Part shown: positions 31,294-61,532 of the stretch, in pieces | Layout of the letters: each line of letters opens with the position of its first letter | How positions within the stretch are numbered: the stretch's first letter is position 1 | NCBI GenBank assembly: GCA_002633005.1 | Contig: NMRA01000376.1 | Span: forward strand, 344,365-408,364 | Length of the DNA: 64,000 nt | Source: Phoronis australis | Lineage: Eukaryota > Animalia > Phoronida | Direction: 5' to 3' | Program-made: the position numbers and the translations under genes | The notes under the pieces: generated by a model | The model's input: only the letters and a program-made list of their open reading frames with translations | What the model was told of the DNA's origin: nothing | The model's database searches: none

Positions 31294-31320
31294 CTCGGCT
31301 GAAAATGGCAGAGTGGACAT
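31294..31320 (-). CDS. Sowah: Candidate 27-nt Sowah cassette microexon (xVHSAIFSR)
   Basis: Very strong pyrimidine tract (ttctctctcctctttctag) and GAG|GTAAGC donor. Open and symmetric in phase 1. Confidence 0.6.
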
Positions 31321-33300: not shown

Positions 33301-33373
33301 CATAGACAGACACTAGGAGTTCAACAACATCTTCATGACCATGCAAAGCAGCAAGGTGGAGTGCTGTATAACC
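33301..33373 (-). CDS. Sowah: Sowah ankyrin repeat exon (GYTALHLAALHGHEDVVELLVSVY)
   Basis: ATTGCAG acceptor, G|GTAAGC donor (phase 1). Canonical ankyrin repeat. Confidence 0.95.
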
Positions 33374-35834: not shown

Positions 35835-35837
35835 CCC
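35835..35837 (-). CDS. Sowah: Sowah 3-nt microexon GGG (Gly)
   Basis: gaatacag|GGG|gtaagt. About 105 nt upstream are free of AG and contain TCTCTTTCATGT. Confidence 0.75.
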
Positions 35838-36044
35838 CTGTATTCAGATGGATGTTTCCGCCGAGCCAAGGCAAGTCACACAGATGTCAACATGAAAGAG
35901 ACAAATCGAGAAATGTTGGGATTTAATGAAATGGAAACGTCAGGCACTTGAGTTTTGGACAATATCAATGACAACTTAATATGCATAACACTAGGAATTA
36001 GTGCTAGATGCATTTTAAGTTATATCGAGCGCTACATTGGCTAG

Positions 36045-36230
36045 TAAAAATGGCCAACTTCATAGTAAGATAAAATGAGACGTTTATCAAGCCAAAAATA
36101 ACACACGTGAGTATACCAAAGAAAATGAGAAATGCTAATTTACCCGATTTCGTGACTCAATTTTTTTGATGTCACAAAATCAAATCAATTATTTGACACT
36201 CGTCATTGTGTGAAATAGAATGTCCCAATG
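36045..36230 (+). repeat. Interspersed repeat, paired with 61650-61850
   Basis: Shared AAAAATGGCCAACTTCA.AGTAAGATAAAAT and CAAAATCAAATCAA...ACACTC...TTGTGTGAA. Confidence 0.7.
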
Positions 36231-37266
36231 TAAAAGTCATTTTATCTAAATGGCGCTCGATATACCTTTAAGGTTAATGGTTTTAAATAGTGCACATATT
36301 GTGAAAAATGTTTCATTAGGAGTTGTAGAGCTAGGGATAAACTGAACACTGAGCAGTAATTTTCTCCAATTAATCAAATTAAAATGTTGGCACTGACAAC
36401 CAAAAGCAAAAACGACCTTTTGGACTTCACACGGAGCAAGTATCATGAGTAGACAAAAACTGTGAGCAATAATTAATAAGACTATTTCAAAATCAAGGTA
36501 AGTTATCAAAACTAGAAGTTTTTAACGAACAGTTGGTTAGGGAGATCTTAGCAACACTTACACAACAAACAGAGAACCTTAAAAAGTAATTGGTATTACA
36601 CCCTTAAGAGCCACAATGGAAGTTCCCGAAACAATTAAGGTTTCCTAAATCAAAAGCTTAATTCTGATTACAGATAATTCACACAAATATCCAAAGGCAA
36701 AAATAAAGGCAGTGAAAGTTCAAACCAAAGAGAAAGGAATTTCTTTGAATAAACAAAACATATGCTCAGATTGCTACTGTAGCGAAAATATCAAAATATA
36801 TTATTTGATACGGAATTAGTTTTTCATGAAACAGATCTTGACACTTGAAATGATTTTCCTTAACCCAAATTGCTTTTTTTCAGTTTGAATAGCGCAATTA
36901 AAGTGTTCTAGGATGTCAGTATGACATTTGGTACTATTAGACACGAGAGCCAACATGCCACGGTGACAATGGCCCACCATCACTTGACTAACAGTTGTTG
37001 CAACAGTAGTGTTCTACAACTAAAAAACAACAGCAACATTTGTCAACGGCTTGTTAACCAAACTGTTGACAACGTTCTCTTTAATTAGACAATCGTGAAT
37101 AATCCTGAGACATGTTACATCTATGGAGCATCATAAACATTGTTTTATGAGAGATTTGTGAAGCTCGGCTTGAAGCGACACTGAATGGATGATTTGGCTA
37201 ATTACAAAATTATTCAAATCGGCAGCGCTTAGTGGTGAATAGACTAATAAAAGTCATGTGACTTAC

Positions 37267-37269
37267 ATT
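37267..37269 (-). CDS. Sowah: Sowah 3-nt microexon AAT (Asn)
   Basis: gcggatag|AAT|gtaagt. Gives ARS-N-G-GYT, matching the AR(S/T)(N/H)GGYT loop I recall for Sowah proteins. TTTCATGT lies upstream. Confidence 0.75.
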
Positions 37270-38584
37270 CTATCCGCGCCAATGGTAGTAACAGGACATG
37301 AAAAGATAGAAGAGAAATAGCAATTAAGACATTTTAATGGAGTTCGTGTGTAAGCGTTCAGTGAATAATTAATCAAACATTCGACTTGAGCACAACAGTC
37401 AATGAGGCAAGATAATTTAGCAGCATACTTCCACCCACAGACAACGTTCCGTTTGGTAGATTGTATTATTAAATTTCTTCTAAAATAAAATGATTTAAAC
37501 AACTCAAAACAAAATAGTTAACATGCAAAAGCTAAAGAGTTGTGTTTATAATGATTGTCCACTAACCGTACTTTGCACAAAAATAATTACAAAAATAGAA
37601 TTTTATTAATTTTTCACAGGCTGACTACCTTGCTGCACAAAATAGAAACTTTACCGAATGTAGCTGTATGACATCTCCATACCACAAACCATGAGGAGAA
37701 TAGACTAAACAGTTATTGATCTTTATTTTTGAAGAGAAATTTACACTTATCGGCCTCACTGTGTGCTAAATAAGTGAAAAATTAACATAGTTTGAATATA
37801 TGTGTTTACTGTTACAACATCAAAAGGATATTTCCAAGAATTAAACAATGCACTTTTTGAAAACAAACATTCGACTGTTCATATCAAAATGCTTTCAAAA
37901 TCTCTAAATCATTTGCCCAGACAAAACATGACAGTCTGCAATGATCCCTTGAATAAATACAAAATATTAAATTAAACGATAACGGGTCTACGTAGAAACT
38001 GATTCGGGCAAAAGTAAATATTTTATTTTGCCCATTATCAAAACACTCCTAAACTACTGTTTGCATTCACTGCTGATAAAGGCAGTCATTGCTGGAATCA
38101 GACTGGCTTACGCAGATAACGATTTACCAAGTCACTAATACCTCGTTTTATTGTTTATTTTTTAATTATAGTACATGCCAAACATTGTTCTTAAGTAATG
38201 TCCTGACCTACAGTCAACTGTCTTGAATTTTGAAAGGAAAACTGCTAAAAGGGAGTTAACCCCGCACTTAGTTAAAACCAAAAATTTTTTTTCGTTGCTT
38301 ACTGCTATAAAAGCAGTAACAGGGATCAGAAATCATTTCTAGGCTTGAGAATTGGTAGGTCCTTACTGCCTCAAACCAGGCCCATTAAGGTGCTTGTCAA
38401 GGTGGTTAGTTGCCAAGACAACCAATCTCAAATTCAAAACAATGGATAAGAATAGGACGTAGTTGTTTTGGAAAGGCAAATACGCTTATGAAGAAAGTTA
38501 ACATCATTAACACCAGTACACCGCTTATAGCAGTTCTAATTATAATTTTTCAAAATTATAAAGGGTTACTAAATTGTAAATCAG

Positions 38585-38840
38585 TTGTTTGAAGACCTTT
38601 GAACATTGCAAACAGTGCAAATCATTGACAGAGTGTTGTTTCATGACTTTTGTATATTGCAAACAATGCAAGTCAATTTGATGACCATTGCAAACAGTGT
38701 AGATCACTGGCAGTGTTGTTGGATGATTACTGTATATTGCAGGCAGTCCAAATCCATTGTTTGATGACCTTTGTATATTGCAAACAATGCAGATCATTGG
38801 CAGAGAGTTGTTTGGTGACTTTGTATATTGCAAACAATGC
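38585..38840. repeat. About 60-bp diverged minisatellite, about 4 copies
   Basis: Recurring ATGAC.TTTGTATATTGCAAACAATGCA.ATCATTG.CAG. Confidence 0.85.
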
Positions 38841-41537
38841 CGGTCAGCAAAAGAGTCATCCACAGAGTCAACACTAATTTACTGAAACATGCCTATCAGA
38901 TCCAAAATTTGTAATTTTTGAGGGAATCAAACAAAATTTCAAGGAAGTAAATTGAGATGCTTGTCACCAACAATAAAAAACAACCAAAAATAAAATGGAC
39001 GCAGATTCCCTGGATCTGAAGCCTAACAAAAATATGTACAGTAAAATCTCACCAATTTAAGACACAATATTGACAGCAAGTGAAATTCTATTTTTTATTT
39101 CTTCATAAATGTTCAGTAACACCAATTAAATGCTATACCAATTTGAAAGGTCTATACCACAGCTATAATCTTACAATGATTCTGCTACATATGGTCTCTC
39201 ACAACAATGTTGGAAGCCTCTGCCGATTATTTTAGTCTGAAATAGGTGAGATTTTACCGTAACCGAAAGCGATTTTTTTGGTGCGTCTGTGTGCATGCAT
39301 GAGTTATTTCCTTCCTTCTAACTTTGAAAGTAGGCGTATTTTGCTATTCTATATGTGTGTTATAAAATAAAGACCAAATAAACAAAACAAAGCAGGGGGA
39401 TTGCATTAATCATAGTCGGTGAAATACATAGATAAAGTGAACATACAAAACATGAAAGTACAGGCTTGTCCTATGTAATTACAGAAAGTTCTAAGAATCA
39501 GGAAAAAATTATTTTAATTGGGGAAAAGTAAAGTTAAAAAGTTGCTTCCCAACTTAAAAAGACAACCTTCAATAATTCTAATCTATCTACAACATTAATA
39601 TCTAAAAAAAATTCAATAACGCAGTGAACTACACGACACAAAAAACACAGAGAGACAATAGATCCGTGACTTTTGCCAAAAGCTAACTTTTGATTTAAGA
39701 TGTATTTGCATGTTCCTAACTATGCTAATGTATAACAGGAACTAGACGTCAATGCTATTTGAACATTATCTACACTAAACAAAGTGCAATGTTGTTTTCA
39801 TAAACTATTTGTAAATGTAAAAACAAAAAATTCTGCTAATAAGTGACCTTTGCAGGCTCACATAGCCCGCATCATACAGTGTTATTCCCCAGCACCATGT
39901 GACTATACTTACTGGATACGGCTCAGTAATTTGGATCATTTTGGCAACAAAACTAGTTCTTAAAAACATATAGCAATTTTCAAACTACGTCATATTCACA
40001 TCGTTGCTATGTGTTGTGTTTCTGGCCAAGCAATCACAGAGATAAGGAATTAGCGTGCAAGTTCTACTTTAAGGCCACTTTCTGTTAGCAAATCGAGTCT
40101 CATCATGTTCCTTGTTCTAGATATAGAAGAACTGATAGGCTGTTGTTTGCCTCTGACCAGGTTCACTATAAGTTGATTGTAAACATGAGTTACTTTCTGT
40201 CCTCAAGACATGAGGTGGGTCAGGGAATTCCATTGCCTGTAACCAATTTTCAATCCACACAAAGGATAAGAACGCGCGTGCAACGACACTGATTTGAAGT
40301 GCCTCAAAACGCCTATGAAGATCGAGTTTTAACACCAGAACATTGTTATACAGGCATAAGTCAGTTTCAAGTTGACTTATCTATTAAGGATAAATAAAGT
40401 GAAATGGTCTTACAGCTGTAGCAGAGTGAAATATGGTGTGAAATACCAGAGCCTGCTGATGAAGTTAGCCATGAATTATGCATTGTGTGTCAGTCCATCT
40501 TATGGAGGACCTTTTGTGTGTGTCATTCTGATTGATGGATTTGGGAGACCGGCAAAGTTCATAGTCATGCAAAAGGCTTGATCACATACAGAAGGTCCAT
40601 AACAAAACTGTCTTACATCAAATGAGGCTGAGTTTGTTGCATATCACTAAATGAAATGTCTTCGTGAAGATGAAGGTTCATACATTTAGGTAGTCAATAA
40701 AACTAATGACATTTTAGATACCGTCAGTAAATTTCTTGAAGTCTGCAGATGTGACATACAGTAAAAATTCTTCAGTTTCGGACAGTGAAAAAAATAATAC
40801 TTTGGTCAAGATTGGATCTTGTACCACCAGGGGGCGTGCTTTAGGAAACAACAAATTAATTTTATTTCAAGTAACTTCAATGAAAAAATTAGCTTTCGCG
40901 CAAACACTTTTCACAGGAAGAAAATGAAAGGCAAAGACCCCACCAGATCAGCTCAAAACAGACAATGAAAAGTCATAATGGACTTTAAACTTAGATCAAT
41001 GACTGAAAGCTGTCAATGAAAAATTCTATACACAACTTCAATATAATAGGACATATGGACCTAATGACTGGTGGCATGAGTTCTCACTCTCATTCCAGGC
41101 TAAAATTTCTTTCTTCTCTTTGATCGGAGGTATAATTAGTAGAATTAAAAAGCCTATGGCAATTACAAACAATAAGCTATAGAAAGTCAGACGAAGTAGC
41201 ATGGGGGGTTGGTCTTGAAATGAAAGTTAAGATGGGTTGGTATCATTTTCACCATCCATGCTATGCCATTCCTGGTATTTCCCTCATATTTCCTTATTTC
41301 TTATTTAGCACATAGTACGGCGGACTGATGAAATTTTACTTGGACAATTTTTTCCACAAAAACAAAGATTAAGAGAAAATTCTAGTATATTACCAGCTAG
41401 GTTTGCACTGAGTAGAGGTCATAAACAACATAAAGCTCCCATTACCCTATTTGCAGCAAGGTAACCAGTCTTTGAAACATGGAAAATGACAATTTTGGCA
41501 ATTATTTCTGTGTGTGAAATAAGTGGATTATCGCACC

Positions 41538-42890
41538 AACAAGAACAACGAAGCAGTTGGCGACACAAGAAAATGCCCGAGTTTACTGGGGTTGGCCAAC
41601 CATACAAAAACAATGTGGAGCACCCACTGTGCTTCTATGGGTGTTTATAGTATCACAAAAATGGCCATTAGATGGCGCAGAATGCATCAAACCAGTCTGA
41701 ATTGAGAAGGTAGCACCGTCTCAGTAATACACAACTATTTGCCAATTTGCATGAAAATAACCCAAGGAACTCCTAAGATATAGAGGCAAAGATAAAAAAC
41801 AATTGACACTAGGGGGCCACCTACAGTGGTCTGAAACTCATCGTCATGTGTTGCCATCTCTATAGGAGTCCACCTGCCAAATTTCGTAAAGATCCTTCAA
41901 AGGGTTAAGGAGATACAGCCATACACGCAAAAACAGCAAAATTGCCCCTGGGGAGAGGGCAGAATAGTCGAAAACATCCAAAAACAAATGTCAGCCAGGG
42001 TCTCCGCATCAGGAACACAACCGTCAATTTTCATAACGGTCCTTAGAGTGGTTTGCCAGATAAAAACGCAGGTGTCAAAAACATGCGTAAAACTTTTTAA
42101 ATACCCTCCAAGTGGCAAAGAAAGCATCAAATCTGTTCAAAAATGGGAAGGCGTTATCATCTCCTTAATAGAAACCTATCTGCCGAATTTCATGAAAATA
42201 CATTAATGAATTCCGAAGATACAAAGGTAAGTGTACAAGAACATTTTGCCACAAGGGGGCACAGTGGTATTTGGATCAGTTTGACACTTGTCACAGTTTG
42301 TCCTTGGTTCCATAGGAACACATCTTTCAAATTTCACATTCACAAAGCTCCTTCAAATGGTTATGGAGATTCAGCTGCAGACACAAAAAACAAAATCGCC
42401 AATAGAGGGCAAAAAAATAGTAGGACCTGTCTATAAGTCAACATCAGTCGTGGCCTTCTCATCAGGAACATATCTTTAAATGTTCACAATGATCCTTTGA
42501 GCCGTATGGCAGATAGAGAAGCAGACGCCAGAAAACGTACATAAAAATAACAAAAACTTGACAAAAGGTGACATAAAAACCACCGAAACCATCCAAAAAT
42601 ACAATGGCATCACCGCCTCCTTATTAAAAACCTATTCTCAAATTTCATGAAAATCCATCACGGAAATCCAAAGATACAGAGGCAAACAAAAAAATAAAAT
42701 TTCCACTAAGGGGCACAGTGGTAATTGGATCGATCCGAAACTCGTCATCATCTGCCGTCAGCCGCTTAAGAACACACCTGCCAAATTTCAATACTATCCT
42801 GCAAGGGGTTTAGGAGACACAGCAGTGGACGCTGGACCCCACAGGTGAAGACAATATGCACCCATACATAAATACGGGGGCGAATAAAAA
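41538..42890 (-). mobile_element. DINE-1/HINE-like non-autonomous element with internal tandem array
   Basis: AACAAG at the left end. Diverged GCCACTAGGGGGCAC...AAATTTCATGAA..TCC...GATACAG subunits. Terminal hairpin ATGCACCCA...GGGGCGAATAAAA at the right end. Confidence 0.6.
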
Positions 42891-43182
42891 TGAAGAATTT
42901 GAAAATGGCACATGTACACATTGTTTGNAATTTCATGAAAATCCATCACGGAAATCCAAAGATACAGAGGCAAACAAAAAAATAAAATTTCCACTAAAGG
43001 GGCACAGTGGTAATTGGATCGATCCGAAACTCGTCATCATCTGCCGTCAGCCGCTTAAGAACACACCTGCAATACTATCCTGCAAGGGGTTTAGGAGATA
43101 CAGCAGTGGACGCTGGACCCCACAGGTGAAGACAATATGCACCCATACATAAATACGGGGGCGAATAAAAATGAAGAATTTG

Positions 43183-43300
43183 AAAATGGCACATGTACAC
43201 ATTGTTTGTGACTTGAGTTGGTAAGGGGAATGGAATCTTCTCACCGTAACAAGAGTAACACCTTTAATTAGATTTTCATTTTTAGCCAGCTAAAGGGTGA
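43183..43300 (+). repeat. Interspersed repeat family, copy 3
   Basis: Same GAAAATGGCACATGTACACATTG..TGTGACTTGAG head. Confidence 0.65.
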
Positions 43301-43368
43301 AAAACTCTACTTTAAAATGCCATAACCTAACACACAATTTGATGTTTATTTTCCCCAGGTAGACTCAC

Positions 43369-43464
43369 CGATCGTGCATTAATATCGACTCCTTGGGTAC
43401 GATAGCCACAGATGAGTTTGACCACTTCAGGCTTTCCGTGCTTACAAGCCCAGTGTAGGGCAGT
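43369..43464 (-). CDS. Sowah: Sowah ankyrin repeat exon (TALHWACKHGKPEVVKLICGYRTQGVDINARS)
   Basis: CATTTCAG acceptor, TCG|GTGAGT donor, 96 nt, phase 0-0. Ankyrin consensus with the Sowah-type TALHWAxKHG. Confidence 0.95.
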
Positions 43465-44190
43465 CTGAAATGGACGAATAACAGTTGCCAATGGGGGGGG
43501 GCTAGGACAGCCCAAAACAAAGTTGAAGGACAATTGTATATTGAAAAATCAAGCACACAGAGATTAGACTGAGACCACATAATTTTTAGCGATACGTACA
43601 CAAGCAAATTAGCAATCACGGTCAACACATATTCAAACACAACCATGCTTTAAATGATAACTTTGCATTTCTACATGACAAATGAGATCAGAGGGTCATT
43701 TTAAGTCACTTTCTAATGAACTTTTCACAACTTTAATAACATGCAAGAGCAGTTTTCACAATTTGCCCATCAAGTTGAAAAATCAAATAACGTTGAATAT
43801 TAATCAATTATGAATTAAGGCAAGACAATAGAAATTAAAAAGCAGACAAAACTAAGAGTCAGACTAAAACACCCGCCAGCGTAGTACAAAGATGAAAGTA
43901 GATAAAACAAATTGTGCACGTGTAAATCACCAGACGTCTGTGATGGGTAATTTGCATAAAAATAAATATAGTTATATAAATCACCTATTCCGTGATACGT
44001 TTTCAGCAAAGTACCAAGGCCAATGTGGCATTGACTTGTAAAACATGATTCATCCACTCAATGCTATACAACTTTCATGAGTCTGATCCCCACAGATTTC
44101 GCTTTAGAGTTAAAAAAACATTTTTCATTTTCCTTTGTTCACCTTGACACGTGTATCAATAATAAAAAAAATATAATAACAATGATTTTA

Positions 44191-45050
44191 AACAAGAGCA
44201 ACCCAGAGCGTTAAAATGCATCGCTAACGGTGTGCTTCTGGGGGTGTATATTTGTATCATGACAATGGCCACTAGATGGTGCAAAATACATCGAATCCAC
44301 CCGAAACGGGAAAATGCCATCACTTCTTTAATAGAAAGCTATTAACAAAATTTCATAAAAATATGTCAAAAACTTCAGAGAAGCAAAGGAAAACAGAAAA
44401 AAAAAGAAATTGCCACTAGGGGGCACAGCATTCGCTAGATTTGTCTGAACGTCATCCTTGTCCATTGTCAACTCCATATAAATATACTTGCTAAATTTAA
44501 TAAAGATCCTGCAGCAGGTTTAGGAGATACAACTATGAACGCAGAAAAAAACTGCCACTAGGAGGTGCCATAGCAATCAACATCATTGGAAAATGATCGT
44601 CAACCATCCTCTTCATACTAAAAACATGTATGCCAATTTTCGTTATCATCCTTGGAATGGTTTGGTTGATAGAGGGGCGGACTCGAAAACAGCAAAAATG
44701 GCCATTAAGTTGTGCAAAATACCTTGATTACATCCGAAAACGATAGGATAGTGTCCTATTACCAATAGATGTCTGTATTCCAAATTTTATGAAAATTCGT
44801 TGAAAACCTTTGAAGATATAGAGGCAAACATAAAAAATAAAATTGCCACAAGGGGGCACATCGGTATTCGAGTCGATCCGAAACTCGTCGCCCTCTGTCG
44901 TCAACCCCATAGAAACACACCTGCCAAATTTCATTAAGATCCTGCAAGGGCTTTAGGAGATACAGCCACGGATGCCGGACACCAGATGTCCGGACGCCCA
45001 GACAGAGATGACGGCCCTATGCGACCACATATAAATATATGGGCGCATAA
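44191..45050 (-). mobile_element. DINE-1/HINE-like non-autonomous element
   Basis: AACAAGAGCAAC start, the same internal subunits, a GGAC/AGAC microsatellite-like patch, and the terminal inverted pair ATGCGACCAC...TGGGCGCATAA. Confidence 0.68.
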
Positions 45051-47101
45051 ACATTAATAATAGTAGTAATAAGAATAACTGAAAGATTGTGAGTTTAATC
45101 AAATTTAATTTTCAATTCTTTCAAGTAAACTCTAATTCTAAAATGTAACAGTACTTTACAGATGGTTTTTGTTCAATTCAAAAACACTACTTCGGATGTT
45201 GACAGAAAAACCAAAAAATTGACACTCAAATAAAAAGCACTGAAACATCAACTAGTTTTTCCTTTTTTGTTGATAATAGCTTTTCAATGCCCCACGCATG
45301 AGATAACTGGTGTGTAAACTGTGAAGTCAGCCCAGTGTTGGCGTGTTCGTTTAAACTAATTTACATTTTGGATAACAGAGATAAAGTATCATCCCTGTAT
45401 TTTGATAAATTATCTCAAAAAGTGCAATTGATGTTTTAACAATCACAAGCAAATATTTCAAAACAAATACTTTGCGTCTGTGTGTACAAATTGGAGGCAA
45501 GAAACCTCAGTCACTCAGTTTACGCACACAGCATTATGAAGAACATTACGCCTAGAACTACTAACTATACAAAGTTTTAAACACTCAGATACGCAGCGTT
45601 ATCAACTAAAATATAAGGATAAAATGGATAAAATGACGAATATAGACGGAACATATATATTAAGAAATTTAACAACTATATGTTTCAAGCAATGCCACAA
45701 TCCAGAGAAGACAGGCTAATGCAACTGTAAATATAGTGAAGGTAAAATGAGAAGAAAAAAGAAATTTAGAGGACAAAAGACATTCAAATGAGACATCCTT
45801 CCAATAGTCACAAAGAAAGACACATGTGACCTTAATTAACCAAGGCCAAAAAAGTATTGTAGGTTCTGGTCTTTTTATGTTCAAAATTGAGTCCATGGTG
45901 CGAAAGTCTTTTAGTTGCTCACTTTTAAAACAGAAAATCCAACCAAGACAAGTGAAAATGGTCAGCAAATCACAAATAATGTTTCAAACCACGCTTACCC
46001 ACCTTTGTACAGCCTTTCAAAATAATGCACCCACGCATAAATATGTGGGTGCATAAAAAACACAATACCTTGGCTGAAATCGATGCAGGTGGGTGTTTTT
46101 TTTTAGTCTGTGAGCGCAAGTCTCAAAATCAGTCAGGGGTAAAAATCAGAATCAGCTTTTCTTTTTTGGCCCAATGGATAAACCAATCATAGATTATACC
46201 AATATGGAATAAGAAGGGTAGAGACAGGCAGATAAGGCAGGTGGATTCGTCGTTTTAGTAATTTCATTCTCATGCAGTAGTTTTCATAATGAACTAGACA
46301 GACTTCAACAGAACTCTGCCAGACTTAGCCAAACTTGGATAAACATCATACCAGAACTACTTGGCAATTTTGTCAAATTTTTGTCATGGTAAAATACAGT
46401 TTTTGTCAAACTTTTACAGGAGTTTAACATGACGTTATTACGCCAAGCCATTATTCGGTTATTTATGCACTTGGAATTTCAACAGTGTGGATGTAGCAGC
46501 ACTTGTCAAGATTTTGTCGAGATTGAAACGGATTCCAGATAATTAGCCGTGCTTTTCTGTACCGAAACTTTGTCAAACTTCTGTATTGTCGAGTTGTTTA
46601 GAAAACTATTTCTTTACTGAATGCACAGTTCTCACTAATTTTTGTTTTCTATTCAAAAGCTATGGATACAAACACAGGGAAGGCCTGTCCATTACTGCTG
46701 AGAGTAAGTAGTTCCCACACTCAGGACGACTTTTGAATGGGAGTGAATCCACCCAAGAAAAATGTGAAAGAAACAGGGAAACAGTGAACGCTACAACAAG
46801 AGCCAAATGCCATTTTGTGTGAACTAAAACACTTAATGTTTCATTTCCTCTAATCCTTGCTAAAATTTTTGGAATCTCCTGAGTGGCAATGGAAATAAGG
46901 TCGAATTACGGTAACTAAAAATTTTTAAGACCAATTTGTGATTGGCTGAGCTTTGATTTTGTATTTTCAGAAAGAGAAATGGAAGAAAATGTGGCATTAA
47001 TTAGAAATGCCCTATTTTTTTCAAAACATTATATGTGGTCATACCACCATCATTACAAAATATAAATAAAAGCAAAAGTAAAAAGAAAAGTTTGTACTCA
47101 C

Positions 47102-47104
47102 CAT
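47102..47104 (-). CDS. Sowah: Sowah 3-nt microexon ATG (Met)
   Basis: gttaccag|ATG|gtgagt. Fills the x position of G-x-TALH. Two TTTCATGT copies lie upstream. Confidence 0.72.
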
Positions 47105-47528
47105 CTGGTAACGCGAACATGAAATAAAGAGAGAACATGAAATTAAAATATGTAAAAACTGCCAAAACAAACAACACAAAAGCACAAAGACAACTGTAAA
47201 CTGAAATGATAGTTACCCAAGACAGGAAATACATGATAAAAAGATGCTCAAGAAAACGTTGCAAGCTTGAGTACACTCCATAGATGCAAAAACTCGCAAA
47301 AAGCCAAGGTCAAGATCATGGTAGTCTTTTGTGAGGTATTGCCATGGGTTTCCATAGTTTCTTATTGTCCCGCTTTTTGAAGCTGCCTCTTGCGTCCCGC
47401 CACAGCATTAGAATAACCCACTTTTTGACATATCCAATGGTATTTACGCACTTATCCTGTAGTGTGCATTTCCGTGTTTTTGTACACTTTTTAACCCATT
47501 CATTTGTTACATTTCGCAGCCATCCAAT

Positions 47529-48308
47529 AACAAGAGCAACACGGAGCGTTGAAATGCGCCATGAATGCATCACGAATGGTGTGCTTATAGGGTTATTTAT
47601 TTGAATCATAAAAATGGCCACTAGATGGCACAGAAACATACAATCCATCCAAGAACGGGAACATGCCATACATCATGAAATCTGTCAGAAAAAAGGAAAA
47701 CAGAAACAAATGAAATTGCCACTTGTGGGCACAGCGTCCATTGGATTCGCCTGAAAGTCGTCGTTGTCTGTTATCTTCATATAAATAGAATTACTAAATT
47801 TAATAAAGATCCTACAGTGCGTTTCGGAGATACAGCCATGGAGGCGCCACAGTGGTCAGTCGCCATCATCTAACGTCCTCTTCACACTGAGAACATATTC
47901 GCCAATTTTCAAAACCATCCCTAAAATGACTTGGATGATAGATGGGTGGTCGCCAAAAACAAGATTTGAAAACAGCAAAAATGGTGCAAACGAGGTTGAA
48001 TCCATCCAAAAACAGGAGGATAGCATCATCTCATCAATAGGTGCCTATATACCAAATTTTATGAAAATCCGTTGAGGACTTTTGAAGATACAGAGGTAAG
48101 CGTAAAAACTAAAATTGCCACTAGGGGGCACACCGGTAGTTGGATCCATCCAAAAGTTCGCTCATGCTGTCCCATCCACGGAAGGAATATATGTGTTAAA
48201 TTTCATGAATATATGTCAAGGCGTTTTGGAGATAGAGCAGCGGACGCCGGACGGACAGACGGAGATGACGGCATAATGCGTTCACGTATAAATATGTGGA
48301 CGCATAAA
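47529..48308 (-). mobile_element. DINE-1/HINE-like non-autonomous element
   Basis: Colinear with 44191-45050. Contains the GGACGGACAGACGG microsatellite and ends ATAAATATGTGGACGCATAAAA. Confidence 0.68.
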
Positions 48309-51300
48309 AAACAACGCGGTCACCATGATGTCTCTGAATGTTGTGGCGGACATTTCCCCATATGGTACCCTGCATCCAGATATCCTGCTTTTTCATTTTG
48401 GAATGTTCACAGCTACGCATCACAAGCACGTGATCACGCTAGCTTTCCTTGCAAGTGTCTAGCATCTACGGCACCCAGCCTTGAACATAGCATTAGTTGA
48501 AAACATTATTCAGCAACCTTTCAATTAGAAAAATACATAGATTTGCACACAAAACACAACAAAAACTATAAATTGCAATGGTAACTACTGAAATACTGGG
48601 GAAAAGAAAAAAATTAAAAATAAACTGCAATCGTAATGTATTTAAAAACGTTGCTCAGGAACATTTCAACCAGAAAAGTACATCGTATACTTGCATGGAA
48701 TAGGAAAAGGCGGCGAATAAATCTAAAATTAATTTCCATTTTATCCACCAGTTACTATATCATTTGATCATGCAAATCTAATTAGATGAACAAATGTACC
48801 ACTTTTCATGCTGCCAATCACTCACAATTTCAAATCTGATCAGATTTTATCTTGTCAATGTGTGAATTGCGCGTTATCAAGATCTAGGTTCTGCTCACAA
48901 CACTTACCAGCGTCGTTTTTTGATAATTAATTTCCGATTTCAACACAAGGAAAAGATCTCAACATAATCTGTCGTGTAATCAACTTGTCATTTGAAACTC
49001 GTCAAGGATATGAAAAAATAAAACGTAATTAAGCCCGCCCTTCAATAAATACATAACAGCTGGCTTAAGAATACTTGAAGAAAAAAAAAACACCGGCAGA
49101 CAAAACCTGTGACAATTCAACTTGAAGTATCAGTGTCTAAAAAGAATTTTATGTATTTTAGACATAATGAATTTAGAACATGAATGAGTCAATAACTTGA
49201 GCTCATCAGACTTTTATTGCGTAATGCTTCTGACAAAAATGTTTTACTCGCAAAAATGCAGACAAAAACAATCCGTGTGAGCTCAAACATTCATTTTTGT
49301 GGAAAAACAAACTAAGTTGTTTCGCACAAAACTCGACTTAAAATATCCGTTTTATTCAACAAATCACGAAAAGTTGGCTTTCCACAGAAGTCTACTTTCA
49401 TTTCTAATTGACACTTGTCTAAAAAACAAAAAATGAAAATTTGCTACTCAAATAATTTGAAACACAAACATAAAAATGAGAAATAAACAATAAACAATTT
49501 TGCTCGATCCTAATGCTAAAACAGATATTGAATTTCAAAAAAGATACAAAAGCAATTAAAACCGAAACAGAGAATTTGAAAGGTTTTTAAATATATCCAA
49601 TTTCGAGACACCTGCACCTTGGTTTTTATCCGATAATCACTTTATGTCAATAGTCTGATCCAATTGTACTAATTAAAATCCTATGTCTACTTGAGTTGAC
49701 TAGTCACGGAATGGAGCAATGTAAACATAAGATACTTGTCTGAGTGAACGCTCCTTACACGCTAATGGTCTTTGATGTTGAGCGGGAACATTAGAAATAA
49801 GACAAATAGTATACCCTACGCGCGCGGCTTGTGATTTCTAACTTAAGAAATGAAGACAACTATAAACTATTAGATGATCCGTTATGATTATCTTTTTATG
49901 ACAATCTGGCAAAAACGGGAAAATGTTCAAACAGTAAACCTCTCACCATTTTAGGGTACAATGTAGCAGACAAGTGAAACTTAATTTTTTCATAAAAAGA
50001 TACGTAGCACCATATTAATGCATTTCCATGTTCAAGTTTTGTACCACTATAACATAGAACCTTGAACAAACCAATTAAAAAAGTATTTTAGCAAATATTT
50101 CTATTCACAACTCAAGAGATTTTACCATAACATTTTTAACATAATCAAATTTTGTTGCATGACTATGTATGGCAAGGCTTCACACAAAAATAATTGACCA
50201 AAATGGTCATTTTTCATTTTTCAAACAACTTATCACATTGTAATGCCCAAAGCATTTACCAAATGTGTTAAGGTAGAAACATTGCTAGCAATGAAGTAAA
50301 CTTTTCACCTTAAAGTTATTTATTTCTGTTGAGAAATTTCATGAACTAATATTTTATTTTTTTGAAAAAGTGGATTCTAAATTAAGAACATTTTAAGCAG
50401 AGAACAGCTATCAACTTAAAGAATTTTTAACGTGATTATGTAAGAAGTATCAAAACAGTGAAGGTAATTAAGTTTTTTTTGTAAAACTAAGAATGAGTTC
50501 TTCAGGAGTGTTATTGCCTAGGTAACAATTCAGAGACACAGACTAAATGTAATGGGAAAAAGATTATTTCACATGAGGGAAGTTCCATGTCAGTAGTAGC
50601 ATGTGGTAAAACTTTTCTCTATTCAGAACACCACTTCCCATAAAAAAGAATTATACTAAGTCAGTTTTTTGAATAAAAATAAAAACTCAGAAAAAATTCT
50701 TGTATCGCATTGGGCAAATAGTACAATCGTCAGTATTAACAGCAATGTAAGATAATTAATTAAAACTAAAGCTGGACTTGCTATAACAGTAAGACAAACC
50801 CTAAAACTTAACACTCCTTAACTCATTCGTCCTTTTTCACCACTGGAAATCAAAAAGAAATTTCATAACGTGTAAGAAAATTTGTCACAACTTTGATAAA
50901 AATCATAAAAGATTTATAATCATCTGAGATAACAACTAATAAGAGCAAAACACTAATACAGTAGAAGGACAATAAGAAAAGGGGGATACACTGTATTTAT
51001 TCCTACAAGAAAATCTCATCAGTTTGGGACACGATACAGCGGTCAAGAAGTTCCGCATTTTTGGCCCTCCACTTACAAGCAAGCGTGTAGTCTTGCTTTA
51101 AACAATTATGCTTGCCAGGTTGACAGCCTGCAGAGCACGGCCAAAACAGTGCAGGGTCGGTGAGGGCATGACAAATCCTCTTCAGCCAATTAATGGGTTA
51201 TTAATAACACTGTGTAATCATAGGACCATCAACCCAGTCACTGAACGAAAACAGCAGAGCCACCTGGAGACAATTAACAAACTAATATGCACACAAGGTC

Positions 51301-53484
51301 AACCAGTGCTGTCTAGTATAAGTGAATCAAAGATTACACAATCACTACAAAAGATAGAAAGTGTAGCAAATATTGTACAACAAATTTATGGCAAACAAAA
51401 ACTGCCAAGATTGTCATTTTCCTAGATTTTTTTGTCTGACAACTTTACTACAAAACACAATGCAATTGTTACCAGGTGTTGTGTCGTGACCTCTGGGCAA
51501 AAGAATCTACGTTAATAATAAAGAAAAATGTCCGCTGAGAAGTTTGACAAAAGAACCCTTGACTGTGAGAGTGTGTAATACACAGGTGAGAAATTATCAC
51601 AAATTAGAAAATACATAATACATACAAGAGATTAAAAGCAATATCAATAGGTGAAAAGCTGCTAATAAATTATTCATATAGTTAACTATTTACATGATCG
51701 AAATTATGATGACTGTCACCCACTCTTTCCATAATATACGATTTTATACACTATTTCATTTTCATTATAACTCTCCAGTCTTTAACCAATTATGTTCATT
51801 CACCAAAATTCATAATGAAAAACATGTTAAAACGCAGAGACCTGCAATGACCAGATATGACATAACCAACGATTATGCGACACGCGACTTTGATTCTGCA
51901 ACACAAAAACTTGATGTAAACAGACCCACAACAGTTCCAAACAAAGCTAATTTCCAGTCAATTCGCCAATAAGAGAAATCTTCACGACCAATTACACAAC
52001 CATATTCCGCTAATTGAATTCGTCACATGGTGCGCTAAGTGTGTGCAGAGAGTGTCTTGAGTAATCTGTCCATATTACAATATTACCCTCAATAACTTAT
52101 GGCACAATAATTTATCCCATGTTTGTTTACTAGCATAGCCATTGTGAAGTTAGACCAACAGTGAGCACAGTTATGGTTGATCAGCAACCAGAGTGATGTT
52201 GTTAGTGTCAAGGGTTTAATGAAGATTTGTTACACACTGCATCTCTACTGGTCTCCACTATTGGAGTTTTGTAGAGCCAGCCAATTACCCTAATAATTTA
52301 CCTCAGTCATGGAAAGAGCATTAGTTTCTAAATCACATTTACCTCACAAGAAGTATCAAAAGTCTAAACAAAAGTACGCACAGATTAGGATAAGTCGGCA
52401 AGAATAATAAGTAACTGCAAAGTCACCTCATTGTCTTCTGTATTTAAATTCATACTTTTAACAGCATTTTCAGAACCAATTCAAAGAAAAATAATTGCAA
52501 ACTTGCCATTCCCATGTTTTAACATGTTGCTAAAAAGGTTTTAAAAGAATTTCACCATACACTGTTTGATGACAGCTTTATTATACAAAATCCTCTAAAC
52601 TGAAGTATTTGTTCTAAACAATGTAGCCATGTACATTCTTAATAGAAAAAGATTCAAAATACATGGATGTTTTTCTGTCCTCTTACTCCTAAAGGAATCT
52701 TTCTTCAATTTTACCCACATTCCAAGATCTGCAACACCCCTTGCCAACTTTCTCCATTTTATAAATTTGCCAACACTTGAAATCGTTCTGTTCAGTCTCT
52801 AAAAGTTGAACTTTGAATGTTTGATTAAAATTACAACTTGTTCCTAGATAATGGAAATTGCGGCTATAACCAAATACCAGCCGGCAGCATGCGATGACCA
52901 ATATTTAAACCATGGTGGATTTCGACAAATAACAACGAACATTCAATGAAAACGGTGATAATTTCTGTTCTAACATGGCATTGATTACACTATAGGGTTT
53001 AAAAGTGCTATACTCATCCAAGTTCGTTTTAATGCTCACCTGCGAAATTTTCAAATTTTCACTATTAAAATGCTCAATCCCCATCCCTGATGTCTGTGAT
53101 CAAGATTTTCTTGAAAGCGCTTGATTTTCTGATTGCCTGTCTCATGCAAATTTTNNNNNNNNNNNNNNNNNNNNNNNNNNNNNNNNNNNNNNNNNNNNNN
53201 NNNNNNNNNNNNNNNNNNNNNNNNNNNNNNNNNNNNNNNNNNNNNNNNNNNNNNNNNNNNNNNNNNNNNNNNNNGGGTAAACCCCCACTCCCTCAAGAAT
53301 TCCCCATGCTCGTCTTAACGCCCACCCACTGATTTTTGAGTTTCCCAAAATTTAAGCACACAGGATGTTAACCAGTGCAGGTACAGTGATACATTAAACC
53401 ATGTTTCAAGTATGCCTACATTTCACAGCTATATTCAGAGGAAATGCCACCACCATAAAGAAACTCCTCTGACAGTCTCATTTA

Positions 53485-53733
53485 CCGGGGGTACTGTACT
53501 CGACCGTTATACCAAAAGGGATGCACAGATTGAAAAAGACACCCTTTTGAAGAGAGCTTGAATGAAGAAGATGTTCCTTGAACTCCCATGTCATACTGGA
53601 TGGAACAAAATTGAAAAAGGTACCCTTCCAAATGGAATGGAACATAAAAGTCACTCTTTCATAGGGAATTTGGCCAGGAACAAACTAACTGATCAGCGTG
53701 CCCGTATACACTTTTTATGGGATTACTCCCCGG
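53485..53733. mobile_element. MITE-like element (CCGGGGGGTACT...TACTCCCCGG)
   Basis: Degenerate TIRs of the same type as the 15268 element. Confidence 0.45.
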
Positions 53734-54611
53734 TGGTCATGGTAACATCTTATGTTTTAATCAGCAATCTACTGAGTACCCACATTGCAAATGTCTGCTG
53801 GTATCTGAGACATGATTCTTGACTTAAAACACAAGATTTATTTCTATTATAGCTTTCGATAATTGTGTTAATTTGAAGTTTAAGTAAGTTTTGTAATAGT
53901 CAAGCAAAAGTAAAAGCAGAGTGGGTCCTTTGTTCAACATCCCCCAAATGTCTTAAGGCCAAATAACAATTATCAGAATTACCTCATTATGCTAATATAT
54001 GGAACAATTGTGATCAAGAAGGGAAACTCGAGACATGTTCTCATACCCTGCTCTATTTAAATTACACAACATTAATACATTCTAAAAATGATAGACTGCA
54101 TATATTTGTAAAAAAAGGGTACTCAACAAATTTATCTACCAGTAGTTCAATCTAAGTGCAAAAGTTGAGAAGATAATGATTCTAAGGATAGAAGATAGGC
54201 TCCTTTGCGTAAGTCATGCCTTTTTATTTCTCACAACATCAACGGTACCAGTACAAATCAAAAATGGTGATCGCATTGTACAATTTAAACAACATACAGG
54301 TAAGTAACGAGAGTATTTCACCTGCAGCATATTAAAAGAATGGAGGAAAACAAACAATTTTCAAAAGACTGAAGTTACAATTACAGAAGTGTAAATGAAA
54401 GTTTGAATATTTTTAGGAAAACAATAATCAATACATAATTATTAGCATGTTTTGAACTCTAGACCAACAACCAAACACATGTGATAGTTTTTTAGCATTT
54501 GCAGCACAGCAGCAGGAATTTGCAAAAATAGAAAAATAAGAATTTTGCAATTAATTATACCAAATGAAGCAGGCGAACTTGAAACACCTTCTCTCCATAG
54601 AACAAGTATAT

Positions 54612-54748
54612 TTTACTGTATAACATATTATTACATTACACTCTATTTTAATGCATTTAATTGTATTGCAATGTATTGTGTTATATTCCAATGTATTACA
54701 CAGCATTGTTTGTATTGCATCACACTCTATTGTATTATATCATGTTAT
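54612..54748. repeat. Degenerate (TATTG/TATTA)n low-complexity tract
   Basis: Roughly 5-bp periodicity of ATTG/ATTA. Confidence 0.6.
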
Positions 54749-56483
54749 ATGTCAAACTGTTTGAAAGCAGTGTTCTCACTGAAAAAGTTACCAACATTTT
54801 TTAAAATGCAATATTCAATAAAAGTTAGAAATAACTGTTGACTATCATGAGAACTGAATAGTCACACCTGGCACAAGTGATTGACAGTCCACTTAACACA
54901 CCTGGCCAACAGTACATGTCAATAAGAAAAATAAATAGCAGAGGAAAAACACTCAACTAGCCACAAGATAACTGCAAGAATAACACAGAAAATTAATTAC
55001 CGCAGGTTGGTGCGAATAAATAAACTAGATAGCCCATTAAACTGATTAGAAATAAAATGCTGTAGCCAATAAAGTGTTTGGATTTAATTACAGGGGTCAT
55101 CATCACCAGCACTGTGTACCCAACTGACCGGGCCACTAGCTGCGACTGACAGCATAATCCCTTCCAGATTTAGAGGAGCACAAGTGGTGGTCAGTGCCTA
55201 CAAAGGATGATAGCTTTAAATTGGCTTGCTGGGACACGTGTGATCTAGCTGGACGGTGTACTAACGCGTGTATGGAACACAGACGAATGGTAACTAGCTT
55301 CATTGGACGATAGGTAACGGGTGCGACTGGATACACTGGCTGAATCAATAACAGCGGAACGGATTAACGAAATGTTGTTACTTTTAATGTAAAGCAATGT
55401 GAAAGCTGTTACTTTCCATTGGGTTATAATGCAAAAAATTATTTTGATCTCGGAGTTTTAATATATTACAAATTAGCTGATTGTGATTATTAGCATTCCG
55501 TAATTTAGGATCAATAACTGATGAAAAATGCTCAATGCTGAAAATACAGGAGTATGAAAAGCCTAAAAAATTGCACTGGTACTATCAAGATTTAATAGAC
55601 TCCTAGTCAACTGCTTACCACACAAATGTACAGAAACTTTAAACTTTATAAAAGCTAATTTACATACTGTTTGACATAAAGTGCTTACCGATTACCAAAT
55701 AGTAAAAACAACGTCAACATCCACAAAAACATTCGCTTATAACACTGCACATTACAATCAAGAATTAAATTTTTCAAAAAAAAAACCAAAGCAACGCAGG
55801 GAATGTTATAAAAGTAGACGGTAACTGACCATCACAGATACCAGGTGACCGCAGTAATTACCCCGTGAACATGTACATGAAGTATAGACACATGTCTAAA
55901 CACACTGGTCCAGGTAAACTGTTGCAGTGTATGTGTTTACTCAACACTAATATGTTGGAGGCGGGACACTGCAGCAGGGGGCTGTATATAGATAGACTTC
56001 ATCAGACCAACGAGTATGACACCACACATGGTAGATCGACTACTTGCTAGATGGACTACGGGGATGCGTAGTGAGATATCTAAACCAGTGTTCTAAGGAT
56101 AGTAGAGTTATGATTAATTACAAGGTATAATTAATGTAATTAAGAAATCCTTTATGCTACGCAGATGCTATTATGTAACATTACATTCTATACAAGGACA
56201 CCAAAGATCTAAGAGTACAATTATTCCTAAATATTTGAGAGAAATATTTTTACACAATAAAAGTACAGTATATTTACATGCAGATATTTACCATAATGTA
56301 CCAGACAATTCACAATATTGTCATAATACAATACATTTCACATCTTGACGTTGTTTCGGTATAACCATGGTGATATTCTTACGGTGTGGTAGTATTGCAC
56401 GCATGTTTAATATCTACTTGCAGAGGTCATCAATGGTCTATGTAAAGATATGTGTATCCTTTACACCATGACTAGAGGAATAT

Positions 56484-56639
56484 CCAGCGCTGGGTTGCAT
56501 AAACTTCAAAATAATCCGCTGGATAAGTTTGATTGTTACACGACATCACGTGCATTGTTCAACAATAACAACGTGGTGCGTGATAATGTGACGTCATTGT
56601 TGCTATGCAGCGTATAACTTTTATGCAACTGGGCCATGG
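56484..56639. mobile_element. About 155-bp MITE-like element
   Basis: Subterminal inverted GTTGCATAAA / TTTATGCAAC with CCA...TGG ends. Confidence 0.5.
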
Positions 56640-57165
56640 TTTGCAGTTTGAGTTTTGGGTAATGAGCAAGAAGAAAGTGGAGTACACTACAGTCTATGAA
56701 GTTATCATTTACTAAGCAGACTAATTTCCCAAAATATATTCAACAAATAAAATAAAAATGAAAGTTTTGACCAACTGAAACAAGCTAACAAGTCACCTGT
56801 GAAGGAGCTTATTTTGCATCCCATTAAGTCAGCAAGGGAAATTCAATAGGTAGCGCTAGTGCAGATAGGGACCCCATAGAAATGCCTGCAATCAGGATAT
56901 CGTGTGGAATCCTCAAAGCATGAACAATCCCATGCTCATGAAGTGCTCTCTGCTCTCAATCTGTTTTATGATGAAAAGAAGCACGTTTGTTCATTAGCAA
57001 CACCTAGTGAATATCAAGTCTCCCATTAACAAAACACGAACACACATTATACAAAGCCTCATACACTGGTGTGTTTAGCTGTGTCCAAAGGGGGGCTGGA
57101 CCTCAAGCCCCCCAACCAAAAAAGTCGCCGAGGCCACGCCACAAAAAGTAAAATAGACAACTTAC

Positions 57166-57168
57166 CCC
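57166..57168 (-). CDS. Sowah: Sowah 3-nt microexon GGG (Gly)
   Basis: tcaacag|GGG|gtaagt. Supplies the consensus Gly of the ankyrin G-x-TALH motif. TTTCATGT and a pyrimidine tract lie upstream. Confidence 0.78.
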
Positions 57169-59972
57169 CTGTTGATTCCAATGTACAGCGACGACATGAA
57201 AAGAGAAAAACGAAACACATGAGACAATGATGGAAATCTTTGGACGTACAGTTCTTCCCTAAATCATGGTATACCACAATTCATTCTGTCAAATTTCTTG
57301 ATGAGCACAAAATATGAAATCTCTACTTCATTGTTAGTATGATTTGCATACAGCTGTGATTCAACACCCCTTGGTAGAATGTCAATAACTTGTAACAATG
57401 TAGCACGTTGAAAGTTAATAAAATTAAAGCCTAACTTCAACGGAGTTTTGTTTAGATGTATTGGGCTAACCAGATAGTCCTAGCAAAGCCTTAGCAAAAT
57501 AAGAAAACGCGAGTTTAATCAATCAAATGTAGGCACATCAAATGATAGGTGAAGTTGCCTTTTCGTGCCATATTAAGTCACCGCCAAAACTCAGCAGAAA
57601 AAACAAATGGCCGATAACAATTGTATTGAACAGGGGAGTGAATAGAACACCATCGCATGCGGATGTTATTCACAGCTGTTTGAATTAAAAGGTGATTCTC
57701 ATGGTGACGTAGACAAAAGCAAGCCAACAAGTCTAACAATTCATTACATTTGCCAATTTATGGCACAAGTGGGCTCAGTGCGATGCTCGGCTGAAACTCT
57801 AGTAACCAAATTTACATGAGTTACCGTTCAAGATAAGAAAATAGTTGTGTTAGTAAACTAACTAGAAAAGTCTAGTGTGGAACAATAAGAACGCTGACTG
57901 ACAATTTTTAAATTGCATTAAAATGCTTTTCAGCTCATGCAGGTTTCCAAAACGGATAAAAAAACAAACTGAAAATCTCAAACAAGATCGAGAAGCAAAC
58001 TGACCAAAACATTCTGAAGCGTTACAGTAAAAGGGGAAAAGCTTCATCATGTCAAAAAAGACATAAAATTAACCATGAATTGTTTTTAAAATGTTCCACT
58101 TTTGTACAAGGGGTTGTCAAAAATAGGACTTCGTGAAAAATCAAAACTTGAACAAAACAAAAACAAAATTATCATTTGGAAAACTGTAACTACATCATTT
58201 TTCAGATTTCATCTTAGAACATTTCTATTCACTGAAATTTGGTCATGTTGTTGGTACTCTTGTTTTGCTGTGAATATACCTTACATTTTTTGCTAAATTT
58301 TACTAAAAACACATGCCTTGGTCAAATGACACAATGAATGGTGTACTGGTAAAATATAAAAAATCAAATTCTACAGGCCTTCTACTTTCAAAGAATATAT
58401 ACTTTTGCAGAATTAAAACCCATAATTTTGCAAATATTTGGCTAAATACAGGTTTGCAAATAAGGTCCTGCATGACCATAACGCGTTAAAATATCATAAA
58501 AATGAATGGCAGGAGGCAGACTAGGTTGCCAGGGTATTTCAAATTTACAGGCAGCATAACCGATGTTTGACATCATCTACCCTATAACTCAATCTTTCAC
58601 TTCGCGCCGTAATTCTTAGCATCAATCGAACGGTTCTTCAAAGATATTTTAGCGAGGAAAATCAAACAACTCTCAAGGGACGTCACTCTATACACTACAG
58701 TGAAGCATGCCACGTCTTACAAGACAACCCGACATGACCCATGGAGCAAGCAGGGGCCTCCAAGGGCACCGAGTGATTGAATGTTTACACAGAATAGACA
58801 GACGCAAGTTATCTCAGAACACCGATAGAGTATGAAAGCATGAAACTCCCATGTGATTCAAAAATCATATTTAGTGTAAGTGAACTTAAAAACTTTATTT
58901 TTTTTACAACAGATTGCAGTCTTCATTTACAACTTGACATTGCACGGACTCATAATTGCCTCAACTTTGTTATATCCAACAGCCAAAACTGAAAATGCTC
59001 GATTTAAAGAGTGCAGAGCGACAGACCAAATGTGCAATTTGAAAGGATGTGCAGCTTTTAAATAAATGTAAATTCTAAAGGGGTGACAAAAATTCTTGAA
59101 CTACTAACTGTACTCAAAATTGAAAAATACGTTCAATGTTCACTTTAAATTAGAAAAAATCAAGAACAACATGGAAGATGGACGAAAGACTATTAGCTTC
59201 ATGTTGAAAATCAGAATTGGTCTCTTTCATAAAAAGTTGTATTTTCACATGACAAATATAAAACATTTCGATATTCAGTACTACCATCGGGACTTCATTA
59301 TCGTTAACACGTGTAGTGATCTGAAAAACACATATTTCCACAGAACGACAAGACAAACTATAACTACAAGCCAACAACACAGGGAATTGATGTACCGCAG
59401 TTACACATGAATGTAAATGGAGTAATTTGATTATGCACCACAGGGAGGTGCTCCACACAGTCAGACATAAATAGGGACACAAAGAGATATCAGTTTAATT
59501 TGGGATTTGATACGCTGTACGATTTTGTCACACTACATTACATGCAAGACAAGTCTAAATACATTTGGCATCAATTAGACATGTTGTAAGATGTCAATTT
59601 TGTCTTTTACTGAAGAAAACTCCCGCAGGCAAAAGATGGGCCAACTTCCGCAACGACTTACAATAAAATGCAAATTTCATAAGCTAACCTTCCTTAATAA
59701 TAATTTTCATCACTCAATTGCATTTATGCAATACTTCAAGAAGGGACCACACTGGTAATTAAAACTAACTAGTAGGCAACTTGAGATATACTTTAATGAA
59801 AGAATTTCTTGAAGATGGAAGAAAACGTGAAAACAAAACACAGAAATTCTGCCATTTTAACTGACATTAGGATGATTGAAAATGTAAAGACCACCAGAGA
59901 GAAGTGAATATATCTGTTCTGTGACGATGATTCAATCAATCTCTAAGTGGTACAAGATGATGATTGTCTTAC

Positions 59973-59984
59973 CGTTATTATGTC
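59973..59984 (-). CDS. Sowah: Sowah 12-nt microexon (DIIT)
   Basis: ttgttttctttttcag|GACATAATAACG|gtaaga. Supplies the D-hydrophobic-x-T/S segment expected between LAKKK and GxTALHW. Confidence 0.85.
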
Positions 59985-61430: not shown

Positions 61431-61532
61431 CTTTTTCTTTGCCAGTTGAGGATTTGTCAGGAGTATTTTGGCGATAGGGTGATAGTCAGACGTCGATGCA
61501 AGAATCATCCATTGTCTCTCCTCGGGCATCAA
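61431..61532 (-). CDS. Sowah: Sowah exon (LMPEERQWMILASTSDYHPIAKILLTNPQLAKKK)
   Basis: TGTTTCAG acceptor, AAG|GTTTGA donor, 102 nt, phase 0-0. Matches the Sowah pre-ankyrin helix L.P.E+.W....A..DY..+..LL..NP.LA.+K. Confidence 0.9.

Follow-up and report, generated by a model that had tools for sequence, protein, structure and literature searches.

How does the spliceosome choose 3 bases within 10 kilobases (kb) of intron, apparently every time? Exon definition does not explain it, and the question is raised here by a gene in a 64-kb stretch of the Phoronis australis genome (assembly GCA_002633005.1, contig NMRA01000376.1, positions 344,365 to 408,364), hereafter the window, i.e., the whole of the 64,000 nucleotides (nt) analyzed. 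The gene is, judging by the likeness of its exons and by its neighbor, Sowah (CG10632 / ANKRD43), located upstream of an Irx gene on the same strand; the minus strand is the sense strand for all Sowah elements, and coordinates are those of the window. Between its large exons lie microexons of 12, 3, 3, 3, and 3 nt, four of which are a single codon, spread over about 24,000 bases. They had been proposed from the letters alone, with no database searches (the sequence-only reading), and we now regard it as quite probable that all five are included near-constitutively, as the normal way of encoding two hairpin loops between ankyrin repeats.

Three large exons frame the two loops. Exon A (61431..61532, minus strand, 102 nt, 34 codons) ends in phase 0 with a weak donor, GTTTGA; exon B (43369..43464, minus strand, 96 nt) contains one ankyrin repeat body and is in phase 0 on both sides; exon C (33301..33373, minus strand, 73 nt) contains the next ankyrin repeat and ends in phase 1. 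These boundaries bear out the proposal that A, B, and C meet in phase 0, and all five microexons were found on the minus strand exactly where the sequence-only reading had placed them, with the flanks it gave. From 5' to 3', the A-B interval contains a 12-nt exon for Asp-Ile-Ile-Thr (59973..59984, minus strand) with an ordinary pyrimidine tract and the donor GTAAGA, a 3-nt Gly exon (57166..57168, minus strand) preceded by 67 nt free of AG and followed by GTAAGT, and a 3-nt Met exon (47102..47104, minus strand) with 52 AG-free nt and the donor GTGAGT. In the B-C interval, a 3-nt Asn exon (37267..37269, minus strand, 113 AG-free nt) and a second 3-nt Gly exon (35835..35837, minus strand, 107 AG-free nt), both with the donor GTAAGT, are predicted from the sequence. 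The introns of this chain from A to C measure 1,446, 2,804, 10,061, 3,637, 6,099, 1,429, and 2,461 nt, and the estimate that about 16.5 kb and about 10 kb of DNA yield two codons each agrees with measured spans of 16,508 and 9,995 nt.

Signals this short need a null, and we used 500 dinucleotide shuffles of the two large introns (27,961 nt of sense strand). The pattern YAG-NNN-GTRAG is found 5 times in these introns versus a mean of 0.90 in the shuffles, only 1 of 500 reaching 5; the longer YAG-NNN-GTRAGT is found 4 times versus 0.35 expected, and again 1 of 500 shuffles reached 4. On the antisense strand of the same introns there is one match to the former and none to the latter. Four of the 12 GTRAGT sites in the two introns have a YAG exactly 3 nt before them, and no other YAG-to-GTRAGT spacing between 0 and 30 nt occurs there more than once. 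It is this unique 3-nt spacing, together with the excess over the shuffles, that shows the microexon signals to exceed chance. There is only one 12-nt candidate in the A-B intron, and the only 6-nt candidate in the B-C intron would encode His-Thr. The microexon donors are stronger than the GTTTGA of exon A; a weak upstream donor followed by stronger microexon donors is the pattern reported for constitutive fly microexons. The fifth YAG-NNN-GTRAG match (49759-49761, minus strand, tag-CGT-gtaagg, Arg), absent from the list of the sequence-only reading, was rejected as a decoy, having an AG 5 nt upstream and no copy of the octamer described below.

Do the predicted residues make ankyrin loops? 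Scored against a profile of 1,141 ankyrin turns from 269 proteins, the B-C junction reaches 58.1 bits with Asn and Gly, 45.2 when joined directly, and 44.7 and 43.1 with one codon; Asn plus Gly gives an Asn-to-Thr distance of 8, the commonest ankyrin spacing (476 of 880 cases). At the A-B junction, Gly plus Met alone scores 42.9 bits and the full form 40.7, ahead of 35.2 to 36.2 for the six remaining forms. The generic ankyrin consensus therefore supports the four single codons. The claim that splicing restores the consensus stands for Asn plus Gly and for Gly plus Met; the 12-nt exon is not needed by the generic profile, so its case rests on the comparisons with fly and Nematostella.

The Nematostella comparison comes from a published alignment of CG10632 proteins, of which the rows available to us were used (PMC2674049). 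In Nematostella, the first loop reads Asp-Phe-Thr-Ser-Gly-Tyr where the window predicts Asp-Ile-Ile-Thr-Gly-Met, and the second reads His-Gly where the window predicts Asn-Gly (PMC2674049); at 6 and 2 residues, both loops match those of the window in length. All 11 bilaterian CG10632 gene models in these rows have a gap of 5 to 6 residues at the first loop, and all 11 are without the two residues of the second (PMC2674049), which is the pattern to be expected if gene predictors miss microexons. That the gaps are model errors follows from the fly row itself, which lacks residues that FlyBase now annotates. There is an annotation issue here, i.e., 11 of 11 bilaterian models in the alignment lack eight loop residues, distorting the ankyrin loops (PMC2674049). 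The host reads as Sowah, and the microexons fit its ankyrin loops.

The fly gene provides the closer precedent. For sowah (CG10632, FBgn0036302), PMC8042270 lists five FlyBase-tagged microexons of 12, 3, 3, 6, and 27 nt from 5' to 3', given in its Table S4 as ME119 (12 nt, Cys-Pro-Ala-Thr), ME3 (Gly), ME2 (Tyr), ME19 (Asn-Gly), and ME615 (27 nt). Its Table S5 places all five among 128 constitutive coding microexons, and the main text, as far as it was available, does not name sowah (PMC8042270). Fly and window share 12 + 3 + 3 nt in the same order, ending in Thr, Gly, and a hydrophobic residue, with Asn-Gly next; the Thr, Gly, Asn, and Gly codons are the same in both. ME119 has the length and the final Thr codon of the 12-nt exon of the window; ME3 and 57166..57168 are both 3-nt Gly exons; and ME2, a 3-nt Tyr exon, presumably occupies the place of the Met exon at 47102..47104. 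A 27-nt exon lies 3' of the loop exons in both, ME615 in the fly and a candidate at 31294..31320 in the window. There are differences too. The 12 + 3 + 3 nt before the first TALH repeat are present in the window, whereas a single 6-nt Asn-Gly exon is not: ME19 corresponds to two 3-nt exons 1,429 nt apart (37267..37269 and 35835..35837), giving four single-codon exons in the window as compared with two in the fly. An intron of 10,061 nt separates the first two single codons in the window, as compared with 1,081 nt in the fly, and the residues differ, Asp-Ile-Ile for Cys-Pro-Ala and Met for Tyr.

Whether such an architecture had been published, which the sequence-only reading could not verify, is hence decided against novelty: FlyBase already annotates one consecutive single-codon pair together with the 12-nt exon. 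The window gene varies a known architecture, having four single-codon exons to the two of the fly; what is new here is one extra exon split and an 8-letter signal common to all four single-codon exons. Our surprise is limited accordingly, since FlyBase already records most of the architecture. The literature search, which left most subscription papers outside its reach, turned up no paper on Sowah microexons. Maeso 2012 is said to treat the exon-intron structure of Sowah, perhaps including these exons.

RNA evidence covers the A-B junction only: three raw RNA runs with one species label, together with a contig set (X1), were mapped to 43330-63300, and 15 of the 104 joints obtained are listed. 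Among these, the joint 43465->61430, which ends one base beyond exon A, skips 17,964 nt with non-canonical ends and is carried by 24, 11, and 9 reads in the three RNA runs (44 in total). All have the first mate on the plus strand, as a stranded library would give for RNA from the minus strand. Joining A directly to B would skip 17,966 nt and a Met-only form 17,965 nt, and a skip of 17,964 nt implies that the insert starts and finishes with G. The RNA thus shows that something is included at the first loop, and not the full string. The search for junction reads proposed by the sequence-only reading succeeded as far as extra letters between A and B with G at both ends; the string AAAAAG-...-ACTGCC itself was not read. 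The direct A-B join, which had been named as refuting evidence, is not the listed joint (17,964 nt skipped, not 17,966; 15 of 104 joints listed). The longest short sides of the joint reads (66, 61, and 61) favor an insert of 16 letters over 13, 10, 4, and 1 by about 2-, 4-, 18-, and 35-fold, weak figures that assume the read lengths. The contig set X1, which contained a small share of the sequence words searched for, showed no A-B joint. About 85% of mapped reads continue unlike the stretch and are largely repeats.

Some further features of the mapped reads are recorded here. With the first mate on the plus strand, read depth is low at 45328-47325 (0.45-4.57) and at 59314-59979 (0.68-0.9), i.e., in the introns directly downstream of the Met and the 12-nt exons, and about 0 over most of 50656-55317; such reads may be slow-splicing intermediates or repeats. 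Repeat-derived stretches at 43996-45327, 47326-48657, 55984-58647, and 60646-61311 attract most of the mapped reads in all four runs. An X1 contig at 61465-61626 crosses the exon A acceptor into the upstream intron, the raw RNA runs having no reads at two listed positions; it is probably DNA or unspliced RNA.

What could mark a single codon in such introns? The octamer TTTCATGT is located within 70 nt before all four single-codon exons and before none of 12 other acceptors, which include the 12-nt exon and three Irx exons and of which several are tentative. On the minus strand, it is found at 57194..57201 (A at -29 from the Gly exon), in two copies at 47117..47142 (A at -34 and -16 from the Met exon), at 37296..37303 (A at -30 from the Asn exon), and at 35890..35897 (A at -56 from the second-loop Gly exon). 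Because the octamer was found after looking, the draws were scored for any shared word: when four YAG windows were drawn 20,000 times from these introns, 2 draws had a common 8-mer, as did none of 20,000 AG-free matched draws and none of 20,000 shuffles. There are 8 copies of TTTCATGT in 42 kb of sense strand, 5 of them before the single-codon exons, versus 4.2 expected in all. The AG-free zones of the four exons (52, 67, 107, and 113 nt) compare with 15-74 nt for the 12 other acceptors, and the pyrimidine tract is mostly 5' of the octamer, set back from the AG. The octamer fits the branch point consensus YTNAY.

Starting from the observed signals, their order, the fit to the family, and the extra letters between A and B, we propose a path of five steps. 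First, all five exons would be included fully and near-constitutively, as their counterparts are classed in the fly. Second, each codon would be found through its AG-free acceptor zone of 52-113 nt, the octamer TTTCATGT as the branch point or its close neighbor, and a perfect GTRAGT donor; ordinary exon definition would not serve, since there is no room on 3 bases for both splice-site complexes together. Third, splicing would run in 5'-to-3' order: once the upstream intron is out, the codon would end a long exon, and the donor of that exon would be used in the ordinary way. Fourth, the introns would be kept through Irx enhancers and selection on loop length: Sowah introns carry Irx enhancers (PMC12311624 and PMC5803294, both citing Maeso 2012, in the passages available), and skipping keeps the frame while it shortens a structural loop. 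Fifth, loss of the intron that separates Asn from Gly likely gave the fly its 6-nt exon. A broader proposal may be added, that single-codon exons in multi-kb introns have a recognition signal of their own (the octamer and an AG-free zone, and no UGC code) forming an SRRM4-independent constitutive route, with this gene as a natural four-fold replicate preserved since early bilaterians, its introns being tied to Irx enhancers; taken as a whole, this is speculative and we hold it to be unlikely.

Several points weigh against the reading of the five exons as a near-constitutive path with its own signal. The joint 43465->61430 is equally compatible with six of the eight possible forms, the full 18 nt included; the inserted letters between A and B are not displayed, and the B-C junction is outside the RNA reading. 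A minor direct A-B join may hide among the 104 joints, of which 15 are listed, and the read sides favor all 18 nt over 15 nt by 2.2-fold, a weak margin. The generic profile puts Gly plus Met alone above the full A-B form (42.9 vs 40.7), and the fly exons are placed between the same large exons on the basis of their order and codons. Protein and metagenome searches recovered no Sowah orthologue protein or orthologous genomic DNA with which to gauge conservation of the octamer. Its distance varies from -16 to -56, TCATG is also found before 2 of the 12 other acceptors, and each single-codon exon has other branch-like sites. Please note that the second to fifth steps above are inference.

The variable distance bears on an alternative that leaves the exons constitutive and makes the octamer the site of a dedicated splicing activator, not the branch point. 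Identity in 8 of 8 letters among five copies at four exons is more than YTNAY needs, two exons have a second TCATG, and each has another branch-like site, while the distance to the AG, -16 to -56, is not fixed; all of this would suit a bound factor. The octamer contains YCAY and is one letter off the RBFOX motif. In three of the four exons, however, its A sits at -29 to -34, where the ordinary acceptors of the window have branch-like sites; the gene has no more than a mild excess of TCATGT (41 vs 27.5 expected, rank 321 of 3979 hexamers), and no factor with the exact octamer motif was found in print by an unselective literature search. We regard an activator site as doubtful, though a serious candidate.

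A second alternative concerns inclusion itself, i.e., that the microexons are regulated cassettes, for example of the neural SRRM4/eMIC type, with as many as 32 loop variants tuning a binding surface. All five keep the frame, AG-free zones of 52-113 nt are a feature of eMIC targets (PMC8797185, in the parts available), and the RNA joint 43465->61430 does not separate six forms. The likeness to eMIC microexons extends to a long AG exclusion zone, a tract set back, and a weak-looking 3' splice site (PMC8797185; PMC12871342), and it ends at the UGC near the AG, the CUAAY branch point, and the weak donor (PMC8797185), which are absent in the window: none of the four 3-nt exons has a UGC at -25 to -4 or a CTAAY within 70 nt, and the 3-nt donors are perfect GTRAGT where fly eMIC exons have weak donors (PMC8797185). 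The fly counterparts are classed as constitutive (PMC8042270, from the tables available), the single-codon B-C forms score 13-15 bits under the full form, and in the eMIC table file searched the sole sowah row is another exon, of 46 nt, the fly loop exons being absent from that file. Regulated inclusion is therefore improbable in our judgment, and the exons of the window are likely constitutive and structural, not tissue-switched, unlike eMIC microexons. As for the last alternative, that chance produced some or all of the splice-like candidates in 28 kb of intron and that the short loops are real, we consider it very improbable: a comparable decoy exists at 49759-49761, short loops are found in 11 of the 12 published CG10632 rows (PMC2674049), and the second microexon pair is outside the RNA reading, yet the excess over shuffles, the matching fly lengths and codons, the full loops of Nematostella, a fly alignment row without residues that FlyBase annotates, and a listed A-B joint that is not direct all speak against it.

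Other systems resemble the microexons of the window in part. The mammalian RPS24 trio of 3, 18, and 22 bp also combines several microexons, one of them a single codon; it is alternatively spliced, has one 3-nt exon only, and belongs to an unrelated gene (PMC12207440, from the text available). Adjacent microexons have also been reported in plants, in the part of the report at hand (PMC8831610). Other accounts of the arrangement were rejected. Duplication of a simple repeat module does not produce the two clusters, the introns being at 0, 1, 2, and 6 codons before the TALH motif in the first loop vs 2, 3, and 4 in the second. No common RNA fold was found around the microexons (z-scores -2.18, -0.10, 0.82, 0.10, and -1.19), and Rfam gave no matches in 33000-62000. 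Recursive splice sites are zero-length AG|GT ratchet points at which no exon letters are kept; here 3 nt lie between AG and GT, and the reads hold extra letters. Ordered splicing of single codons may still work like ratcheting.

Four single-codon exons in two adjacent pairs with one shared octamer make a compact test system for recognition, of which the octamer most merits attention.

The assignment of the host gene draws on several lines. Exons B and C are above the Pfam PF00023 ankyrin cut-off (30.6 and 32.8 bits). Block-by-block likeness to CG10632 was judged by eye on the 12-row alignment of PMC2674049 Additional file 5, as far as seen; the exon peptides are closest by eye to its Capitella row, with identities of 17/34 for exon A and 22/32 for exon B. 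To the eye, exon D (32324..32404, minus strand, 81 nt, phase 1) also matches the CG10632 rows, and two C-terminal motifs of these rows, WGS and MPPPK, recur in exons at 22278 and 21314, among the likely 3' Sowah exons at 19044..22278 (minus strand), which start at 22278, 21314, and 19120 and whose ends are tentative. Two protein searches listed generic multi-ankyrin proteins (at least 150 and at least 120 matches), which served only for the ankyrin profile, and another gave 1 candidate and no hit; no Sowah orthologue was among the matches listed. A protein-cluster search gave unnamed or generic clusters, and a structure search gave generic ankyrin structures. The single metagenome locus matched was rejected as a chance match, being 66% guanine plus cytosine and gene-dense. 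The last 2.5 kb of the window, which lie 5' of exon A, showed no candidate exon for the Sowah N-terminal domain.

A homeobox gene with acceptors at 7722, 6808, and 6237 occupies 5838..7940 (minus strand), about 11 kb 3' of the likely last Sowah exon. Its TALE domain (PF05920, 5838-6377, E 4.4e-19) is on the same strand as Sowah, and its sequence reads as that of an Irx gene. An ankyrin gene adjoining an Irx gene is the known Iroquois-Sowah genomic regulatory block (PMC2674049; PMC3342872), and the window shares this arrangement (PMC2674049; PMC12311624; PMC5803294; PMC3342872); the passages of this literature available to us treat linkage and enhancers, not microexons.

Downstream of the loops, a candidate sixth microexon of 27 nt follows exon D (31294..31320, minus strand, phase 1, pyrimidine fraction 0.875, donor GTAAGC). 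It was missed by the sequence-only reading, and it has the length and, as read, the phase of ME615 with a different peptide. At 31639-31690 (minus strand), there is a weak frame-shifting candidate of 47 or 52 nt with poor donors, where the fly has a 46-nt eMIC-sensitive exon. In the 10-kb intron from D to E, a candidate 54-nt in-frame phase-1 exon with a GTGAGT donor is located at 24453-24506 (minus strand). Finally, at 26741 (minus strand), a YAG is followed by one base and GTAAGT, with 50 AG-free bases upstream; it may represent an exon of a single base, the end of one of 53 nt, or chance, and it would be frame-shifting.

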